A stretch of DNA of 42,805 nt from Escherichia phage Shy. The translations under genes and the position numbers were made by a program. Positions 22,713 through 31,000 of this stretch are shown here, one piece after another. The number at the start of each line of letters is the position of its first letter. The first letter of the stretch is position 1. The notes below the pieces were generated by a model, which was not told the DNA's origin, searched no databases, and saw nothing but the letters and a program-made list of their open reading frames with translations. The stretch lies in sequence record OR996328; one strand, 5' to 3'.

Positions 22713-22748
22713 TAGCCCCGCCAGCGCAAGCCAGCGGGGCTAATTTTT
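22713..22748 (+). terminator. intrinsic terminator at convergence of structural and replication blocks
   Basis: TAGCCCCGC-12 nt loop-GCGGGGCTA 9-bp stem followed by ATTTTTA; T-tract overlaps the DNA polymerase stop codon on the other strand. Confidence 0.55.
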
Positions 22749-24882
22749 ACCATCCTTCGCCCGACCCTTCCAAGTCTTCGAACAGGTCTGGACGCTTCGC
22801 CTTCTTCGGCCCGTAATAGCCCATATCCGACAACATATCTTCGGCCATGTTCGTATACTGTTCGAAATCCATATCGGCCGGGAACGCGTCGGGTAAATCC
22901 ATAATCGGGCAAGCGCCTTCGCTATTGCCGACCGTGTTACCGTTCATAATGTAGTTAATCGTTCCGGTAACGCCTTTCGCGTAGTACCAGCGAATCGCCT
23001 TGCCCAAGAATAAGCCGTCTTTTTCGGCACCGCCCTTCACGTTCTTAACCGTTACGAAATCCTTGATATCGCGGCAACTGTTGACCGTTTCGGCAATGGC
23101 CTTACCTTCGATAAGGAAATGCGCAATCGCCTTCGCGCAAATTTCGTTGGTCGGTTGTTTCTTCAACGTGGTTTCGCCGAACACGCCTTTACCCTTGTAC
23201 AGCTTGTCGAACTTCGTACCTTCGGGGAACGTATCGACCCAAGATTTCGACGCCTTGTCGTAATGCTTTTTCAACGCGATATAGTTGTTAACGTCGCGGC
23301 TGAATACGCCTTTGTATTGGGTTTCTTCGGTTTCAAAACCGGTTAGCTTTTCCCATGCGGCGATAATTTCGTTAAGCTGTTCGTACTGGCTTTCGTGCGG
23401 CTTAATAACAATACCGTCGGTGTTCGCCGAAATAACCTTGATGCCCACAAGTTCCAGCATTTCAATTAGCATCAACAACGAAAGTTGGCCGGTCAACGTG
23501 GTTTGAATCAGAAGGTCGGGCGAATACAACGCCGAATACTTCGACCCCAACTTACCGAACGAACCGTTAATCGTAATCTTCAAGCTATCGGCGATAATCT
23601 GGTTAAGTTCTGCGACCGACAGGTCGGAAGACTTCGACAGCCCCTTCGCTTCAAGACGACGCGCAACGATGGTCTTATATACGGTAAGGAACGCCGGGCC
23701 AAGGTGTTTCGGGAAATATCCGTTATTGATAATGATATTCGGGTAATACGATGCAACGTCGCGGTCAATCAACAAGTAACCGTCGCGGGCGTAATGCGCC
23801 GCGCAATTCTCGGTCGAATGCAGACCGCCGACGCCCATTGTATAGACCGAATCGCCGATACGGATTTTCAGACCTTTAAGGAACGACGATTTCGGCCGCC
23901 CTTTTTCGCTGATTACGAACGGTGAATCGACCAACCGTTGCAATATCTGTTGCAACATCGGCGTTTGAAAGTGAACGAAAGCCGGGGGAACGTAATAGTA
24001 TTCGGTGCCCGGCGCAATCTTCGGTTTGCGGGCATAGTATCCGTTCAACTTTTCGCATTCCGCCGACAATACGTGTTCGGCGATTTGCGCATCGGAAAGC
24101 GAACGAAGGTCTTGCCCGTATTCGGTCGAAAGCTGTTCGCGCAACTTGATTTGCGGTTCTAAGTCCTTGAACAGTAGCGCCGTGTTATCCAAGTCGTTTA
24201 CGCAATAGAACCTAACGTTAACCGCCTGTTCGCGGGTCAATATGGTTTCCGGTTCGTATGGCAAGTCTTGCATACGTGGCGCGTGCAAACGCCCCGCATA
24301 CGTCTTCAACGACGCTTGAAGCGGGGCGACTTCGATTAGGTCAACGTGGTTAAACTCCGGTATCCGAATGTTGAATTCTTTTTCTATGTCTTCTTTGCGA
24401 TACGACTTGCGGTCTTTGGTTTCTAGTCCGTAATCCGCGTCGCCTTTAACCGGCCGCTTGTTGTCGTTAATAAGCCGGTTCGTAACGTATTTAAGTACGT
24501 TCATTGGCGCACCGGCCAGCGCAAGGAACAGTAAGAACCGGTCGAACTTGATACCGTTAAAACTGATATGCCGGAACGAATGAACGACCCAATTAAGTTT
24601 GTTCAAATCCGCTTGGCTGAATTGTGGGCAATCTGGCGACAGTTCGAACGTAACAACCTTGTTCGTTGCGATATCCTTAAATGCGATTAGAAAATAGTTC
24701 CAATAACATTCGATATCGAAAACCATAGTACCGCCCCGCGCTTCCCATAGTTCGCGGTCGGTAAATTCAACGTAAGGCCGGTTAATGATTGATGGGAAGG
24801 TTAAGACTTTCGGCACAAACGGGCCTTTCGTCTTCACCTTCGACCGCTTATTCGGCGCTAAATCCAAATCATCGAAGAACAT
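22747..24882 (-). CDS. DNA polymerase with 3'-5' exonuclease domain (family B-like motifs)
   Basis: 711 aa; Exo I-like FDIECY; palm-like DVASYYPNIIIN, KITINGSFGKLG and SANTDGIV. Confidence 0.65.
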   Translation of the reverse strand: MFFDDLDLAPNKRSKVKTKGPFVPKVLTFPSIINRPYVEFTDRELWEARGGTMVFDIECYWNYFLIAFKDIATNKVVTFELSPDCPQFSQADLNKLNWVVHSFRHISFNGIKFDRFLLFLALAGAPMNVLKYVTNRLINDNKRPVKGDADYGLETKDRKSYRKEDIEKEFNIRIPEFNHVDLIEVAPLQASLKTYAGRLHAPRMQDLPYEPETILTREQAVNVRFYCVNDLDNTALLFKDLEPQIKLREQLSTEYGQDLRSLSDAQIAEHVLSAECEKLNGYYARKPKIAPGTEYYYVPPAFVHFQTPMLQQILQRLVDSPFVISEKGRPKSSFLKGLKIRIGDSVYTMGVGGLHSTENCAAHYARDGYLLIDRDVASYYPNIIINNGYFPKHLGPAFLTVYKTIVARRLEAKGLSKSSDLSVAELNQIIADSLKITINGSFGKLGSKYSALYSPDLLIQTTLTGQLSLLMLIEMLELVGIKVISANTDGIVIKPHESQYEQLNEIIAAWEKLTGFETEETQYKGVFSRDVNNYIALKKHYDKASKSWVDTFPEGTKFDKLYKGKGVFGETTLKKQPTNEICAKAIAHFLIEGKAIAETVNSCRDIKDFVTVKNVKGGAEKDGLFLGKAIRWYYAKGVTGTINYIMNGNTVGNSEGACPIMDLPDAFPADMDFEQYTNMAEDMLSDMGYYGPKKAKRPDLFEDLEGSGEGW

Positions 24883-25901
24883 TAGTTTCGAATCCCCGCT
24901 ATTGCGCCCCGGATGCCGTCACCGAAGAAGAACGCTTGACCATTATACGACGTAAAGTCGGCCGACAACATATACGGTTCAATCATCAACAGCAATTTGC
25001 CGTTATACGCTTGGCCCGCTGGCAACCCTTCGACTTCGTATTGCGCCCCGTCCAAGCCGTCGGGATGCGACCGCATTTCGCCTTTTGCGAAGTATACGTT
25101 ACCCGTTGCGGTAAACGAAGCAACGGCCTTAACCGCGTCGAAGAATCCGTCGGGAAGCGGCCACGGGTTAACGTTCTTGTTCAAAATGGCGTCAACATTC
25201 GGCCAGCATTCCGAAAAAAGTTGCGTTTTGATAAACGATTCGTCGTCGAACCAGAACGTCGCGGAAGACGCCGAAAAGCCGAAACCGACTAAATCGCGTT
25301 CCGACTTTGCGATAACTTGCGCGGCGGCTTTCGGGATAACCAAGCCGGGCGGCAAGTCGATTCCGTGCCAGAACTCCAACACGACGATTTTGTTAGTCGC
25401 GTATACGGAATTCGCTTGCAGCAACAAAGACGCTTCAAGAACCGACGCCGCGCCTTCGGTAGCCAGTGCCATAACGGCCGCGAAGCCTTCTTTAATGCGG
25501 TTGTCGATTACGGCGATATTCGGGTCGGGATACGTGGTCGGCATCGACGTTAAATCGACGCACGGTACGACGGCCTTAAACTTGCCCGACTGAATCGTTA
25601 TCCGGCTGTTGTCGCCTTGGGTAATGCTGAACTGTTCCCCACATTTACCAAGGGCCGCCGCCAGCAAGTCGGATTGCGGGCACGCGGTCAAGTCTTCTTC
25701 GATGCGTCGGCCGATGGTCAATTGACCGTCGAACGCGCTAATCGTCTGGTTCTGTATGACTACGTGTTGTTGGTAGATATGACCGCCCTTCTTTTGGGCG
25801 GCCGATACGAATTTCAGGGCTTCAAGGAAACCAGCGGCGGCCGACGTTTCCTTAGCCTTGCGGGCGCGACTGCGACCCTTAGCGGCTGTTGCTTTCGCCA
25901 T
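24882..25901 (-). CDS. putative sliding-clamp-like protein (DnaN-like)
   Basis: 339 aa; RITIQSGKFKAVVPCVDLTSMP region resembles beta-clamp pattern; stop overlaps polymerase start (TAATG). Confidence 0.35.
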   Translation of the reverse strand: MAKATAAKGRSRARKAKETSAAAGFLEALKFVSAAQKKGGHIYQQHVVIQNQTISAFDGQLTIGRRIEEDLTACPQSDLLAAALGKCGEQFSITQGDNSRITIQSGKFKAVVPCVDLTSMPTTYPDPNIAVIDNRIKEGFAAVMALATEGAASVLEASLLLQANSVYATNKIVVLEFWHGIDLPPGLVIPKAAAQVIAKSERDLVGFGFSASSATFWFDDESFIKTQLFSECWPNVDAILNKNVNPWPLPDGFFDAVKAVASFTATGNVYFAKGEMRSHPDGLDGAQYEVEGLPAGQAYNGKLLLMIEPYMLSADFTSYNGQAFFFGDGIRGAIAGIRN

Positions 25902-26115
25902 GTTCGGTACTCCGGTCGATTTCGGTAATCGCGGCTTGAAGGTAGTTCGCCATATCTAGGGCTTCTTCCAACGCGTGTTGCAACCATTCGCGAAGGGTCA
26001 ACGGGTTATTATCGGTCGTTACGCCGTATTTGGCAAGTCCGACGATAGACCGTTGCAACAGCATTTCGCGGTTCTTTTCGACGTTGCTGTCGGGCGATAC
26101 GGTAGGGTTTTGCAT
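25879..26115 (-). CDS. hypothetical small protein
   Basis: 78 aa ORF in replication operon. Confidence 0.3.
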   Translation of the reverse strand: MQNPTVSPDSNVEKNREMLLQRSIVGLAKYGVTTDNNPLTLREWLQHALEEALDMANYLQAAITEIDRSTEHGESNSR

Positions 26116-26124
26116 AACTTATCC

Positions 26125-26355
26125 TTAGAATGGAATGTCGAAGTCATGTTGCGCACAACCGTTAACCAATACTTCGGGCGGCGGTAATGCGTCGTAATAG
26201 TTGCATTTCGGCGGCGTATCCTTGTTCTTAGGGCAACCGTTTTGCGACCAGTGTTCGCAGTTCAAGCAAGTTTGAAGAATCATTGCGCCTTGCATTTCAA
26301 CTTGCAATGCGATTCGCAATTCGGCCTTACGGCGTAGTTGTTCGTTAATATTCAT
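26125..26355 (-). CDS. small Cys-rich protein with SSB-like C-terminal tip (DFDIPF)
   Basis: 76 aa; CLNCEH...GCPKNKDTPPKC...GCAQH; terminal HDFDIPF resembles the bacterial SSB acidic tip (DDDIPF). Confidence 0.4.
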   Translation of the reverse strand: MNINEQLRRKAELRIALQVEMQGAMILQTCLNCEHWSQNGCPKNKDTPPKCNYYDALPPPEVLVNGCAQHDFDIPF

Positions 26356-27988
26356 AGCTCATAATCTCCGGGTACTTTTTGTTAACCCAAACCTTGACCT
26401 TTGACGGAATCCGAAGATTCGGCGACCAGTCTACGGCCTGTTGTGCGGTCGGGAATTCGTCGCCGTCGTAACCTGTACGCGCCCGCCACCAATCCCGCGC
26501 CCGCTTTCCGGCGAATCCGCTATGTTCCAAACAAATAAATTCCTTGAACATCCGAATACCGCAGAAATACGAAACTTTCATCATATCCGGCGCACCTTCT
26601 TTTTGATGCAACGAATACAAGACCTTTTGAACGTCGAAGTATTCGACTTGCGGGAAGTCCGACCGCAATAACGCTTCTTCCGATGCACCGGCAAACAACT
26701 TCGGTTCGAACTTGAATTCGTGACCACAACCCGACGGGGTAGGGAACGGCGAACCGCCGCACCAACGGGCCGACGCGTGGTTGTAGCAACCGCAATTGTC
26801 GCAGATACGAACCGGCGCATCGCCGCCACCTTTACCGGGGCGCTTCGGAATAACCGGGTCGTTGATTGGGCCAAGCCGACGGGTATTACCGGCGAAGTCC
26901 AATACCAGACAATTCGACTTGACGTAATCGAAGCCGGGAATATATGCGGCGAAGTCCGGGTTATATGGACGCGTTCCACGACCCAGCATTTGCACCCAAA
27001 GGCCCGGCGAAAGCGTCGGCCGCATCATGCCGATAAGGTCTATCGGGGGATGGTCAAAGCCGGTCGTAAGTACGCCGTTGTTCACGATGCAACGCACGTT
27101 GCCCTTTTTGAACTGCGCGATACGGTCGTCGCGTTCTTTTGTGGGCATCTTGGAATGAACCGCGACCGCATCAATACCGAATGCGACCATCGTTTCGGCA
27201 ACGTGTTCGGCGTGCTGAATACCCGACGCGAACGTTAGCCAGCAATTCCGGTCGTAACCCTTTTCGACCATTTCGGAAACGCATTTATACGTTATTTCGT
27301 TTTGGTCAACGGCGCGTTCTAACGCCCCTTGCGCGTATTCGCCGCCGTGCAAGCCGACCGACGACAAATCGAATTCGGTTGCGGTAGGCTTTGCGATAGG
27401 CGGGCACAAGAACCCTTCGGCCAACAGGCGGTTAAACCCGTCGATATCCGTAAGGTCGTAACAAATATCGGTGAAGATTCCGTTATCGGTTATATACCCC
27501 ATTTTCATACGATACGGGGTTGCGGTCAAACCGATAACTTTTAGGTACGGATTGATTAAACGCAAGTGTTCGATAATCTTGTTATACATTGACGATTCCT
27601 TGTCGCTTAACAAATGGCATTCGTCAATCAAGATTAAATCGCGGTGCCCGAAAGCGGCGACGTTATTAACAACCGAACCGACGCCACCAAAGATAATTGG
27701 TTGCGCAACGTCTTTCGCTTTCAGGCCAGCGGAATAAATACCGATAGGCGCACCGGGCCAGATTTGAACCAGCTTCGCGGCGTTCTGTTCGATAAGTTCT
27801 TTTACGTGCGTCAACATCAACACGCGTTGCCACGGCCAAGCCATGAAAACGCGGCGTATGAATTCGGCGATTACGATAGACTTACCTGTTCCGGTTGGTA
27901 ATGCGACAACGGGGTTCCCGTCGTTACCGGCTTCGAAATAGTCTTTGATGCTGTTAATCGCTTCGTCTTGATACCAACGCAATAACAT
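26345..27988 (-). CDS. SF2 DNA helicase (DEAD/DEAH-box-like) with C-terminal zinc-ribbon-like Cys cluster
   Basis: 547 aa; Walker A ALPTGTGKS, Walker B/DExH LILIDECHLL, C-terminal CDNCGCYNHASARWCGG. Confidence 0.8.
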   Translation of the reverse strand: MLLRWYQDEAINSIKDYFEAGNDGNPVVALPTGTGKSIVIAEFIRRVFMAWPWQRVLMLTHVKELIEQNAAKLVQIWPGAPIGIYSAGLKAKDVAQPIIFGGVGSVVNNVAAFGHRDLILIDECHLLSDKESSMYNKIIEHLRLINPYLKVIGLTATPYRMKMGYITDNGIFTDICYDLTDIDGFNRLLAEGFLCPPIAKPTATEFDLSSVGLHGGEYAQGALERAVDQNEITYKCVSEMVEKGYDRNCWLTFASGIQHAEHVAETMVAFGIDAVAVHSKMPTKERDDRIAQFKKGNVRCIVNNGVLTTGFDHPPIDLIGMMRPTLSPGLWVQMLGRGTRPYNPDFAAYIPGFDYVKSNCLVLDFAGNTRRLGPINDPVIPKRPGKGGGDAPVRICDNCGCYNHASARWCGGSPFPTPSGCGHEFKFEPKLFAGASEEALLRSDFPQVEYFDVQKVLYSLHQKEGAPDMMKVSYFCGIRMFKEFICLEHSGFAGKRARDWWRARTGYDGDEFPTAQQAVDWSPNLRIPSKVKVWVNKKYPEIMSYEY

Positions 27989-28960
27989 TTAGTCTTTCCC
28001 GTTGATAATTGGTTTCCATTGGTCGCAAGCCTGTTTAATTTCGGCTTCGCCGGGAATAATTGCGTTCCATTGTTCGCAAAACCATCGCGCATTATCAACC
28101 GGCCGGGCCTTCACGCACGAACGGCAATTCTTTTCCGGTAATTCGCCTTTGTGGCAAATGCCTTTATAGTTGCAAAACGAACAAGGAACTTGCGCCGGGC
28201 TGGCCGAAATCTTCGGCATTGGGGTTTGACTTGCGATAACCTTTTCGGCCTTCTGAAACTGTTGTTCGCCAAGGCGCATATTTAGCGGTACGATTTCGAT
28301 ATGCAAGTCGTCGTCGTTCTTGTTCACGTTCAAGTAAACAACGAACCGGAAGTTATACGCATAGCCATACGTCGAAGTTTGCGCGAAGTGTTGCGGCTTC
28401 GAAAGCATCATGCCTTGTTCGCCCAACTTGTTAAAACCGGCCCCGGTTCCGTTGGTCTTGAACTCGCACAACATCGCTTCTTCGATACCGTAATGCGGCG
28501 GCAACTTGATAATACCGTCAAGCGAACCGCCAAAGTGCCCCATTGCGCCGGAAATACGGAATTGCTTTTTCCCCTTGTCTTCTTCGCTGGCGTTCTGGTC
28601 GTCGAATTCCCACACTTGGCACCCGATGCCGCGCAAGTATTCGATAAAGGTTGCTTCTTCACGGTGCCCGCGCTGGAACAGGCGCAACATGCGGCCCGTA
28701 AACTTTTCATGTTTCGCCCAACGGAAATGCAACCAAAGTTTTTGCAAGCAATCGTCGCCGATAAGCGATGCGCCCAAATGCGAACGCGGGCCAGTGTCGT
28801 AAGTTGCGACCGCCCATTTTTCGATATCGTCTTTCAGTCGGTTAGCTACCAACTTAGCGACGCCGGGTTGCATTAAGTCAACGCTTACGCTTGCGGTCTT
28901 TTCCGCTGTTTCGTTCGTATTCGCGTTGTTCCCGAAGATTTCGTTTTGCTGTTCGCTCAT
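27989..28960 (-). CDS. PD-(D/E)xK exonuclease, Cas4/RecB-like with Fe-S Cys cluster
   Basis: 323 aa; N-terminal Cys (GDDCLQK), D...E-x-K (GSLDGII...CEFK), QTSTY, C-terminal CSFCNYKGIC; start may be the internal Met at 28873. Confidence 0.6.
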   Translation of the reverse strand: MSEQQNEIFGNNANTNETAEKTASVSVDLMQPGVAKLVANRLKDDIEKWAVATYDTGPRSHLGASLIGDDCLQKLWLHFRWAKHEKFTGRMLRLFQRGHREEATFIEYLRGIGCQVWEFDDQNASEEDKGKKQFRISGAMGHFGGSLDGIIKLPPHYGIEEAMLCEFKTNGTGAGFNKLGEQGMMLSKPQHFAQTSTYGYAYNFRFVVYLNVNKNDDDLHIEIVPLNMRLGEQQFQKAEKVIASQTPMPKISASPAQVPCSFCNYKGICHKGELPEKNCRSCVKARPVDNARWFCEQWNAIIPGEAEIKQACDQWKPIINGKD

Positions 28961-29393
28961 TTTTACGCGCCTTACGTCGTTCGATGATTTTTTCGTTTGC
29001 GGTGAAATGCTGGTTACAGATTTCGACCGCCCGTTGTAATTGGTCTTTCGACAACCAAGAAATATGGCAATCGTCCGACGCGATACCCAATTCGCCCGCC
29101 AACCAGTCGTAAGCGTGCGAACGCGACATTAACTTCGACTTCCAAATCGGGTCGAATGCGTCATGTACCTTTTGCCGTAATTGGCGCGTTGCCCGGTCGG
29201 CCATGCGACCAAGCGGGATAATCGTTCCGGGGTGACAGCCGACGGCCGCTTTGCAGTCGTGGCAATAATAGATTTCGGGCCAATCCCCGAATAGCCGACC
29301 GTAAATTCGGTCGTTTTGCGTTTGTTCGATGTTGACCGAACCGCAGTTATCGCAATGCGCCGGTATGGGCAATGCGTCTTCGACTTGTGACAT
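28878..29393 (-). CDS. zinc-finger domain protein, function unknown
   Basis: 171 aa; HCDNCG...CHDCKAAVGCH Cys/His clusters; basic C-terminus. Confidence 0.45.
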   Translation of the reverse strand: MSQVEDALPIPAHCDNCGSVNIEQTQNDRIYGRLFGDWPEIYYCHDCKAAVGCHPGTIIPLGRMADRATRQLRQKVHDAFDPIWKSKLMSRSHAYDWLAGELGIASDDCHISWLSKDQLQRAVEICNQHFTANEKIIERRKARKNERTAKRNLREQREYERNSGKDRKRKR

Positions 29394-29408
29394 ACGGCAT
29401 TATTCCCC

Positions 29409-29439
29409 TGTAAAGACGATAAGGGGCCGAAGCCCCTTA
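29409..29439 (-). terminator. intra-operon intrinsic terminator after SSB-like gene
   Basis: Read on the minus strand: TAAGGGGC-TTCG-GCCCCTTA followed by TCGTCTTTA. Confidence 0.5.
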
Positions 29440-29453
29440 CCGTTGATTGCGAC

Positions 29454-30263
29454 TTAGCGCGGTTGGCCCCAAGCCGGTTGGCCGCCGCCGTTGCCTTGGT
29501 TCTGGTTCCAGCCGCCGCCGTTGCCTTGCTGCTGGCCTTGGTTGCCCTGCTGGTTGCCTTGCCAGCCGCCGCCCTGCTGGTTGCCCTGCTGGCCGTTGTT
29601 GCCGTTGTTCTGGCCCCAACCCGGATTACCGCCGCCGTTGTTCTGGCCTTGGTTCTGGTTGTTGCCGCCGTTGTTATCCGGCATCGGAACGTTGTTCGCG
29701 ACCTGCGATTGACCGCCCCAACCGGCGTTGTTACCGCCGTTGTTTTGCTGCTGGTTCTGGCCGCCGTTCTGTTGCTGGTTGCCCCACGAACCGCCGTTGT
29801 TACCGGCTTGGCCGCCGTTGTTCTGCGCGGCTTGACCGTTGCCGTTGGCGTGGCCGGGTTCGTTACCGTTGATATCGAACACGCGTTTTACGTCGGTGTA
29901 CTTGTTCGGGTTCGGTTCTTTCTGCAACCCGACTTCGACCATAAACGGGATGTTGTGCAACTGTTGCGAATCTTGCACTTGGAACACGCCGGTAACGTGG
30001 CACAAAGCCGACAACTGTTTGTGCGCGATTTCGACGGTTTGCGGGTTGGTATGGTACAGGTTCAGGCGGTAAGCGCCGACCGCGCCTTTGTTCGGGCCGT
30101 CGATAACCTGCAAGTCGAATTGCAGATAACCGGAATCGTTATCCTTGGTCGGCTTTACTTCCGACTTGATAGCGATAACCGGATGCTTGCCGATAGGCAA
30201 ACCGCCGACGCCTTGGGTCGGGTCTACGTTACGCGCGTCGAACGCTTGCATCAATTGAGCCAT
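29454..30263 (-). CDS. putative ssDNA-binding protein with long Gly/Asn/Gln-rich disordered C-terminal tail
   Basis: Start at MAQLMQAF (AAAGGTAG RBS); C-terminal ~140 aa of GNNGG/QQ/W repeats resembles an SSB linker but lacks an acidic tip; lies next to an AAA ATPase. Confidence 0.45.
   Translation of the reverse strand: MAQLMQAFDARNVDPTQGVGGLPIGKHPVIAIKSEVKPTKDNDSGYLQFDLQVIDGPNKGAVGAYRLNLYHTNPQTVEIAHKQLSALCHVTGVFQVQDSQQLHNIPFMVEVGLQKEPNPNKYTDVKRVFDINGNEPGHANGNGQAAQNNGGQAGNNGGSWGNQQQNGGQNQQQNNGGNNAGWGGQSQVANNVPMPDNNGGNNQNQGQNNGGGNPGWGQNNGNNGQQGNQQGGGWQGNQQGNQGQQQGNGGGWNQNQGNGGGQPAWGQPR
29460..29870. repeat. low-complexity coding repeats (CCGCCGTTG / CTGGTT units) encoding the G/N/Q-rich tail
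   Basis: Visible short tandem-like nucleotide repeats; they create spurious long ORFs on the plus strand. Confidence 0.7.
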
Positions 30264-30319: not shown

Positions 30320-31000
30320 TTACGACATTGCCTTTTTGAACAGTGCCGTTAAATCTGGTTGTTCCAGTTCGTTAAGCCGACCGCTTCGGTCGCGTGGTGC
30401 GTTGATTCCGAAGGTTGGTGCGGTGCGAATCGCCAACACTTGCGATTGTACACCGGGAACCGTCGTCTTTGCAACATGCCCGATTAGGTCGTACAAGTGC
30501 GGAACCTGAATCCCCAATTCTTGACCGGGGAAATACGGTTTCTTAACTTGCGTGCCTTCTTCTTCGGCCATCGCCTGTTTCGCAATCAAATACGTGTGTT
30601 TCTGTTGCATGTAGTACAAGCCGGTAAGGTGGTCTAGTACCTTTCGGGCCATTTCGCCGTAAGCCTTGCGGCCGTCGCGGTTGCGTTTCAATTCGGCTTT
30701 CACGACGATTTCGGCCAGTTGCGACACTGAATCGACGCCGACGGTATCGAAACCTTTGGATTCATTCGACCGAAACAGCCAATCGAAGAATTCGTCGATT
30801 CGTTCAACCGTTGGCGCTTCCCATGCGGGAACCGTCGAACCGCGCATCGACAACATACCCGGTTCGGTAATCAGCAATACCGGGCGCGGTGCGGTGTTGA
30901 TAAGCGGCGTCTTACCCGAACCGGGCGGCCCATAGGCCAACATCTTGACGCCGTATTGCCGGGCGAAATCCCCGGCCGGTCGTAAGTCGCGTGTTTGCAT
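30320..31000 (-). CDS. AAA-family ATPase (Sak4 / AAA_24-like recombination ATPase)
   Basis: Walker A YGPPGSGKT; start at MQTRDLRP (31000) with AGGTGA RBS; the track's longer N-terminal extension is probably untranslated. Confidence 0.6.
   Translation of the reverse strand: MQTRDLRPAGDFARQYGVKMLAYGPPGSGKTPLINTAPRPVLLITEPGMLSMRGSTVPAWEAPTVERIDEFFDWLFRSNESKGFDTVGVDSVSQLAEIVVKAELKRNRDGRKAYGEMARKVLDHLTGLYYMQQKHTYLIAKQAMAEEEGTQVKKPYFPGQELGIQVPHLYDLIGHVAKTTVPGVQSQVLAIRTAPTFGINAPRDRSGRLNELEQPDLTALFKKAMS

Follow-up and report, generated by a model that had tools for sequence, protein, structure and literature searches.

In bacteria, docking on the C-terminal tip (SSB-Ct) of SSB, a protein that binds single-stranded DNA, is an organizing principle of genome maintenance and a drug target, and it is treated as a property of SSB itself. 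The E. coli tip reads MDFDDDIPF and docks by inserting the side chain and the carboxylate of its terminal Phe into a pocket that is hydrophobic and has a basic lip (PMC10238739). The 42,805-nucleotide (nt) stretch of DNA from Escherichia phage Shy (sequence record OR996328; the whole of it is called the window below) raises the question of what it means when such a tip stands on a protein other than SSB. Here, the candidate SSB has a long Gly/Asn/Gln-rich linker without an acidic tip, and a separate Cys-rich product of 76 amino acids, the small protein, ends in …GCAQHDFDIPF. Both observations had been made in an earlier prediction from the sequence alone (the original prediction), which placed the two genes three genes apart and proposed either a split or rearranged SSB function or a small protein that mimics the SSB tip in order to recruit or sequester host proteins. 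On these points the window reads as described: the small product is encoded by an open reading frame (ORF) at 26125 to 26355 on the minus strand, and a DUF3268 protein, a Cas4-like exonuclease, and a RadD-like helicase lie between it and the SSB. We find that the tip is conserved throughout a family of small proteins, that related phages can carry it on the sliding clamp or the helicase, and that their SSBs end in a conserved peptide of another kind.

Conservation of the small protein and its terminal peptide

The small gene begins with an ATG that has a GGAG 9 nt upstream, and its ORF overlaps the helicase stop by 11 nt. Among the 588 stop-to-stop ORFs of at least 40 amino acids in the window, it is the sole one to end in Pro followed by Phe, Tyr, or Trp or in an acidic-aromatic sequence. 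The profile searches that had been proposed for both proteins assigned the small one to PHROG 23504, a family annotated as of unknown function, with a match that runs through the last profile position (E = 3.4e-12), and to no Pfam family. Homologues detected by tblastn occur in 55 cultured phages of Pseudomonas, Vibrio, Xanthomonas, Achromobacter, Stenotrophomonas, Rhizobium, Burkholderia, and Variovorax, and the alignment always reaches the last residue. An exhaustive profile search widened the family to 300 cluster representatives, nearly all of 56 to 130 amino acids. PF closes 146 of the 150 best short matches, preceded by Ile in 124 and by Val in 18. In 85 of these 146 sequences (58%), an Asp or Glu stands at position −4, and the stretch from −8 to −4 averages 1.7 acidic and 0.15 basic residues. 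In an alignment of 52 family members, C30, C33, C51, C67, and the two prolines at 58 and 59 are invariant and G66 is also conserved; identity to the small protein of the window is elsewhere only about 30 to 40%. Judging from this pattern of conservation, the DFDIPF end, whose likeness to the SSB tip the original prediction had pointed out, is a conserved terminal motif of the family and not a coincidence. As in an SSB-Ct-type tip, acidic residues, I/V-P-F, and a free carboxylate come together in it.

The AlphaFold2 model of the small protein (predicted local distance difference test [pLDDT], 74.9) has an N-terminal helix followed by a compact region that holds the cysteines and lacks regular secondary structure. 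Within it, the four-Cys domain reaches a pLDDT of about 69 to 84, and the last 16 or so residues, likewise without secondary structure, are the least confident (about 58 to 63). A structural-neighbor search with this model returned none. The four-Cys domain probably binds metal.

Longer versions of the small protein, of 234 to 255 amino acids, are found in three loci (L056, 5144 to 5851; L057, 4608 to 5312; L060, 13276 to 14043), where an extra N-terminal domain and a Pro/Ala-rich linker precede the four-Cys domain and the tips read …LEEPPF or …LELPF, not IPF. In viral contigs of high G+C content (65 to 70%), larger ORFs end in …EVIVTGYCD…(about 15 residues)…QVPF or RIPF (L075, 13000 to 13797; L077, 2794 to 4764; L080, 5258 to 5635; L082, 13426 to 13803). 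These look like a divergent form of the four-Cys domain and tip in which the spacer is longer and the flank is not acidic; the SSBs of the same contigs end in …APWKRxA.

Carriers of the tip in related phages

Related loci were gathered through their SSB, and hence independently of the small protein; 51 of them hold both the helicase and the clamp. A tip-bearing small protein accompanies a tipless clamp in 27 of the 51. The tip is on the clamp only in 14 loci, 13 of which lack the small gene, while in the remaining one (L067) the small protein has seven residues past its DDIPF; the tipped clamps bear a C-terminal extension that ends in …EDDIPF, DDDIPF, or SDDIPF. Both proteins are tipped in 2 loci and neither, by the first criteria, in 8, although these 8 include a missed homologue ending in DDFIPF, a clamp ending in EDDIPY, and a helicase ending in …EDDEIPF; the other five of the 8 are tipless loci of low G+C content. 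A locus with the tip on one of the two proteins, small protein or clamp, tends to lack it on the other (Fisher p = 2.8e-5, uncorrected for phylogeny).

In Nipunavirus-type phages, it is the helicase itself that bears the tip. The helicase gp70 of the Pseudomonas aeruginosa phage PAJD-1 ends in …SYADLDDDIPF, with the exact hexapeptide of E. coli SSB, after a Ser/Glu/Asp/Pro-rich extension of about 40 residues past the conserved helicase end, and one further helicase ends in …ESDDIPF. On clamps and helicases alike, the tip sits on extensions that we judge from sequence to be about 30 to 50 residues long. The clamp of phage PaMx42 ends in …SDDIPF, and the DNA of its gene matches 79 phage records, a count that ignores the clamp ends. 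In 90 related loci, an IPF or VPF end is seen in 55 of 7398 ORFs: 49 are small proteins, clamps, or helicases, 5 are small-protein relatives that had not been recognized as such, and 1 is an unrelated, spurious-looking ORF. Comparison of these sequences strongly supports relocation of the tip away from SSB. Portable, strictly terminal, and flanked by acidic residues, the tip is best read as a conserved docking peptide on replisome parts other than SSB.

No SSB-Ct-like tip was found near the RadD-like helicases of the actinobacterial and Firmicute phages Morrissey, Thyatira, Vegas, and Javan506, a comparison that does not discriminate because tip-bearing phages were found only on Proteobacteria. 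In Paenibacillus phage Vegas, the AAA ATPase VEGAS_68 (L098, 6384 to 7460), encoded beside the DEAD-box/RadD-like helicase, ends in the non-acidic …EIRDKVPF.

The SSB and its own C terminus

The original prediction had called the large protein SSB-like from its context and composition, and the profile searches uphold this assignment. The protein matches Pfam DUF669 over residues 8 to 127 (49.6 bits against a cut-off of 21; E = 5.7e-13), its sole Pfam family at E values up to 0.1, and PHROG 6015, "single strand DNA binding protein" (2.8e-76); the canonical SSB profile PF00436 gave no match. A Sak4-like gene adjoins ssb directly upstream in the window and does so in nearly all related loci whose sequence reaches that far, and a Sak4-like ATPase is the recombination partner expected beside a DUF669 SSB. 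The AlphaFold2 model is of poor quality, with an OB-like order of secondary-structure elements (OB, oligonucleotide/oligosaccharide binding). The SSB of phage HK620 ends in NDYPPF (PMC5928155). A direct link between it and the SSB of the window was sought and not obtained: neither BLASTP nor hhalign detects similarity between the two, and the HK620 protein gives no hit to the current Pfam DUF669 model, so that the link rests only on the Pfam DUF669 assignment and the literature.

An acidic C-terminal tail is called typical of DUF669-family SSBs (PMC4889955). The SSB of the window departs from this description, in keeping with what the original prediction had said of its linker: 80% of the 134-residue tail (residues 136 to 269) is Gly, Asn, and Gln (42, 34, and 31 residues), with 6 regularly spaced Trp, 1 basic residue, and 1 acidic residue, and the protein ends in …GGGQPAWGQPR. 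That a frameshift, readthrough, or a missed exon hides an acidic tip can be ruled out because a GC-rich hairpin and a T-run directly follow the stop codon and because the homologues end in the same manner.

The further notion that the SSB tip is missing did not hold, since a conserved, non-acidic P-W-G-Q-R end is found instead. GGAPWGQR is the end of 71 among the 120 closest homologues, and variants of PWGQ followed by R or K are the end of most others. In a set of 81 distinct SSBs drawn from related viral loci, a Trp falls among the last 8 residues in 78, and no member of the set has a PF end or carries two or more acidic residues in that stretch; frameshifted database records seem to account for two of the three that lack the terminal Trp. 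W216, W252, W265, and G266 are nearly invariant among 22 homologues, and the (P/A)-W-G-Q motif of the end is also repeated within the linkers. A protein search with an SSB profile returned close relatives alone, with no extra tail diversity. As the alignments have it, the non-acidic end is a conserved tip in its own right and not a loss; the tip of this SSB clade is distinct, conserved, Trp-based, and probably multivalent.

Two SSBs have lost the PWGQR end, namely, those of phages Pavpe01 (L005, 4552 to 5130; tail RRQPATAG), in which an unannotated gap follows the SSB ORF, and PaMx42 (L022, 9998 to 10741; tail LGAHAKTN). The cause is probably a frameshift or a sequencing error within the low-complexity linker. 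In the window, the linker has a prion-like makeup in which Gly/Asn/Gln spacers separate Trp "stickers" placed every 18 to 34 residues, and it echoes the GGWGQPQQPQ stretch in the linker of E. coli SSB. Self-association of the SSB or formation of condensates through the linker is possible.

Links of the small protein to the exonuclease and the helicase

The four-Cys domain of the small protein aligns by hhalign with the extreme C-terminal domain of the exonuclease (probability, 92.1%; E = 6.2e-7; score, 31.4), whereas 30 column shuffles reached a score of at most 18.2 and the Zn ribbon of the helicase scored 10.7. On the strength of this alignment, the two domains are homologous, the one in the small protein being a paralogue of the one in the exonuclease. 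The four-Cys motif is present in 57 of the 71 distinct exonuclease C termini collected; the domain stands as an addition after the Cas4-type CxxCx5C motif of the enzyme.

The helicase matches E. coli RadD (6jde) at E = 5.7e-60 over residues 3 to 403, a region that spans the two RecA-like domains as well as the Zn ribbon. The start of the small gene lies no more than 60 nt from the helicase stop in 27 of 33 loci, and the small gene is shown, as read from this placement of starts and stops, to be translationally coupled to the RadD-like helicase gene. A fusion of the two proteins had to be considered for records in which only a "DNA helicase" is annotated and was rejected, Baskent_P4_1 having a separate, unannotated ORF that overlaps the helicase end.

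The proposal of a split or rearranged SSB function thus survives in part. The tip has been relocated off the SSB, being present on none of the 81 distinct SSBs and found on the small protein, the clamp, or the helicase, whereas a literal split of ssb is unsupported because the small domain is a paralogue of an exonuclease domain and its gene is coupled to that of the helicase, not to ssb.

Possible role and partners of the tip

The role that we favor, with a confidence that stops a little short of even, is that the small protein may carry an SSB-Ct-type docking peptide in trans for the replication and recombination machinery of the phage. The four-Cys domain would hold the small protein on DNA or on the helicase-nuclease machinery, and it would tether non-covalently to that machinery the tip that clamp and helicase carriers bear covalently; tethering would be the simplest role for the domain because helicases and clamps carry the tip on plain extensions without it. 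The paralogous domain of the exonuclease would use the same anchoring site, and the exposed …DIPF-COOH would insert into an SSB-Ct-type pocket of its partner, hydrophobic and with a basic lip. The most likely partners would be host SSB-interacting proteins for which this 43-kb phage has no gene of its own, such as the clamp-loader subunit chi, RNase HI, or primase. The replisome itself, and not each SSB-coated stretch of phage single-stranded DNA, would be the place to which these host factors are recruited, and the PWGQR tip and Trp repeats of the SSB would serve phage-specific contacts or self-association. Host partners are favored because very divergent phages share a tip identical to the proteobacterial SSB-Ct, because clamp loader, RNase H, and ligase are lacking in the phage annotation, and because helicase and clamp both act as carriers, not as receptors.

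It is tempting, if doubtful, to extend this proposal to the whole siphophage supergroup of Lokivirus, Septimatrevirus, Nipunavirus and other Queuovirinae, and their relatives. Such phages might have uncoupled the two functions of SSB: the SSB would be "silent" to the host interactome, with a private Trp tip (PWGQR) and Trp/Gly/Gln repeats, and the host-type DDIPF would be displayed on the helicase, the clamp, or the four-Cys adaptor, so that host factors (the clamp loader through chi, and RNase HI) would be captured only at the fork.

Several observations weigh against a docking peptide that recruits host factors. The tip of the small protein lies only 9 residues past the last Cys, unlike the SSB-Ct with its long flexible linker, and might pack on the domain, and the acidic residue at position −4 is found in only 58% of the family. 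Five loci of low G+C content (35 to 43%; L030, L032, L034, L037, and L044) have the full Sak4-SSB-exonuclease-helicase-clamp-polymerase module and a PW-type SSB end, and no protein in them carries an IPF tip; that lineage therefore does without the tip or has something else in its place. Furthermore, the choice of host over phage partners rests on two arguments, the identity of the tip and the role of helicase and clamp as carriers, and the precedents of phages T7 and HK620 point to phage-encoded partners.

An alternative that we consider unlikely, though a serious rival, is that the partner of the tip is the phage's own RadD-like helicase, docked and activated or regulated by the small protein; in sister phages, the docking would fall to the tail of the clamp or of the helicase itself. 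RadD binds the SSB-Ct in a pocket on its RecA-like domain 1, and its ATPase is stimulated (PMC10238739); the phage helicase is its clear homologue by the match given above, and the small gene overlaps the helicase gene or abuts its stop. Across 69 phage helicases, the hydrophobic residues of the pocket are kept in character, and the equivalents of RadD R145 and R51 are Lys or Arg in 57 and 64 of them, respectively. However, two of the three essential RadD arginines are not conserved, as R21 aligns with Ala, Glu, Gln, or Asp and R49, past a 5-residue insertion, with Asn, Gly, or Asp. In addition, the helicase looks like a carrier and not a receptor because Nipunavirus-type helicases bear the tip themselves, although a helicase might bind its own tip or that of another helicase molecule.

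Alternatively, the partner might be another phage protein, that is, the Sak4-like annealase, the DNA polymerase, or a primase-helicase, and the tip might couple recombination or priming to the clamp-helicase assembly; here, too, we would put the chances low. In phage T7, the C-terminal tails of gp4 and gp2.5 are functionally interchangeable. The polymerase site on which binding of the gp2.5 tail was modeled is occupied by a DTDF peptide that mimics the gp4 tail (PMC12339929), and the last six residues of the HK620 SSB, NDYPPF, are required for binding and stimulation of Sak4 (PMC5928155). A Sak4-like gene is indeed present in essentially all of our loci with upstream coverage. Yet the tips of T7, T4, and HK620 have drifted from the host motif, whereas DDIPF and DDDIPF are unchanged across the very divergent phages considered here; moreover, the polymerase already has a C-terminal, clamp-binding-like motif of its own, and Sak4 is without a known pocket.

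It is highly improbable that the small protein is a decoy, i.e., an SSB-Ct mimic that sequesters or inhibits host enzymes such as ExoI, RecJ, RecQ, PriA, or others. Its tip does match the host motif, and many small phage proteins imitate host interaction surfaces, but the gene lies within a replication operon and is translationally coupled there, and sister phages build the same tip into core enzymes, the clamp and the helicase, where sequestration makes little sense. Slighter still is the chance that the terminal IPF is no docking peptide and instead forms a structural part of the four-Cys fold, as the short distance from the last Cys to the end would allow, or a clamp-binding motif, like the C-terminal hydrophobic peptides that bind the sliding clamps of T4 and RB69: the tip is portable and independent of the fold because clamp and helicase extensions bear an identical one without the domain, and the clamp-binding version was rejected because clamps bear the tip themselves and polymerases have separate ends of the Q-x-x-L-F-F or LFF type.

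Genome setting

The window matches Escherichia phage Halfdan (Lokivirus) over nearly its entire genome, with 98.5 to 98.9% identity to MH362766 and PP954860; the phage of PP954860 was propagated on Pseudomonas taiwanensis. A single replication and recombination operon on the minus strand runs from the Sak4-like ATPase through the DNA polymerase (Table 1). Canonical SSB, clamp loader, RNase H, and ligase are all absent from the annotated genes of the genome. The DUF3268 zinc-finger gene shares 83 nt (28878 to 28960) with the start of the exonuclease gene. Where the window encodes the 78-residue protein, next to the clamp gene, Langgrundblatt1 and nyashin_LB6 have an annotated ORF of comparable length, a correspondence in size and position only, and Pavpe01 has none. 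The polymerase of the window ends in RPDLFEDLEGSGEGW, and polymerases across the supergroup (loci L007 to L086) end in Q/K-x-x-L-F-F-like peptides, e.g., TGTLFF, AQLFF, QITFF, and ETLFDF, which are probably a clamp-binding motif.

Table 1. Features of the replication and recombination operon of Escherichia phage Shy, with positions in the window (aa, amino acids)
Feature	Position (nt)	Strand	Basis or remark
Sak4-like AAA_24 ATPase	30320-31000	-	Pfam AAA_24, 3.6e-17; PHROG 124 "Sak4-like ssDNA annealing protein", 5.9e-40
DUF669 phage SSB gene, 269 aa	29454-30263	-	Pfam DUF669; PHROG 6015
SSB Gly/Asn/Gln-rich linker, 134 aa, with PAWGQPR end at 29457-29477	29457-29858	-	Composition and motif positions
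Terminator-like hairpin AAGGGGC-TTCG-GCCCCTT with T-rich run, past SSB stop	29412-29438	-	Direct sequence reading
DUF3268 zinc-finger protein	28878-29393	-	
Cas4-like exonuclease	27989-28960	-	
Exonuclease C-terminal four-Cys domain	28004-28129	-	Motif NCRSC…W.C…IP…I..[G/A]C..W; hhalign
RadD-like superfamily 2 (SF2) helicase, 547 aa	26345-27988	-	6jde match; Pfam ResIII and Helicase_C
Small four-Cys protein gene, 76 aa	26125-26355	-	PHROG 23504
Four-Cys domain of the small protein	26155-26268	-	Alignment of 52 family members
Codons of the terminal hexapeptide D-F-D-I-P-F	26128-26145	-	SSB-Ct-type tip
78-aa protein	25879-26115	-	PHROG 11184 (function unknown); between small protein and clamp
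Sliding-clamp-like processivity factor	24882-25901	-	PHROG 947, 9e-60; tip absent in the window
DNA polymerase	22747-24882	-	

Significance and relation to known systems

A literature search for phage mimics of the SSB-Ct and for DDIPF or DDDIPF on phage proteins found nothing relevant, and we did not find the small family, its link to the exonuclease domain, the tip-bearing clamps and helicases, or the PWGQR tip described in the libraries and literature searched. What is new is the carriers: this is a known type of motif, the SSB-Ct, on proteins other than SSB, and not a categorically new mechanism. The same terminal peptide has been kept on three non-SSB carriers in many cultured phages of Pseudomonas, Xanthomonas, Stenotrophomonas, Vibrio, and Achromobacter, a comparative pattern that is clean, widespread among cultured phages, and open to direct test. 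Should the tip capture host partners, it would show how small phages that have a polymerase and a clamp and lack a loader, RNase H, and ligase use the machinery of the host; if it binds a phage partner, it would be a new contact that couples the replisome. Either way, it provides a function-directed handle on PHROG 23504, a large family of "hypothetical proteins", and a mutable target of 3 to 6 residues in genetically tractable phages. The PWGQR tip and the Trp repeats in the prion-like linker are a second unexplained motif, one that bears on the biology of SSB condensates.

Among known entities, PHROG 23504 is the family to which the small protein belongs, and the family libraries record neither its tip nor the alternative carriers nor the link to the exonuclease domain. 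In T7, the tails of gp4 and gp2.5 end in …DTDF and …DGDF, are unlike the host motif, and have the phage polymerase as their binding partner. The T7 system resembles the present one in having an SSB-like acidic, aromatic-ended tail on a helicase and a docking peptide common to replisome parts (PMC12339929); unlike T7, the phage group of the window has a host-type DDIPF, an SSB without that tip, and a dedicated small carrier. The SSB-Sak4 pair of HK620 is comparable in that a Sak4-like gene adjoins a DUF669-type ssb and a PF-ended tip matters (PMC5928155), whereas in the window the SSB ends in PAWGQPR and the PF tip sits on another protein. E. coli RadD (YejH) is a homologous helicase with its Zn ribbon in the same position and is regulated by the SSB-Ct (PMC10238739). 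In contrast to RadD, the phage helicase has two of the three pocket arginines changed, is unaligned past residue 403, and is encoded within a nuclease-helicase-clamp-polymerase operon. From the bacterial SSB-Ct, finally, the phage tip differs in standing off the SSB and its OB fold and, on the small protein, in following a folded four-Cys domain by 9 residues; the terminal I/V-P-F, the free carboxylate of the Phe, the acidic residues upstream, and, on clamp and helicase carriers, the extension that bears them are features that the two have in common (PMC10238739).

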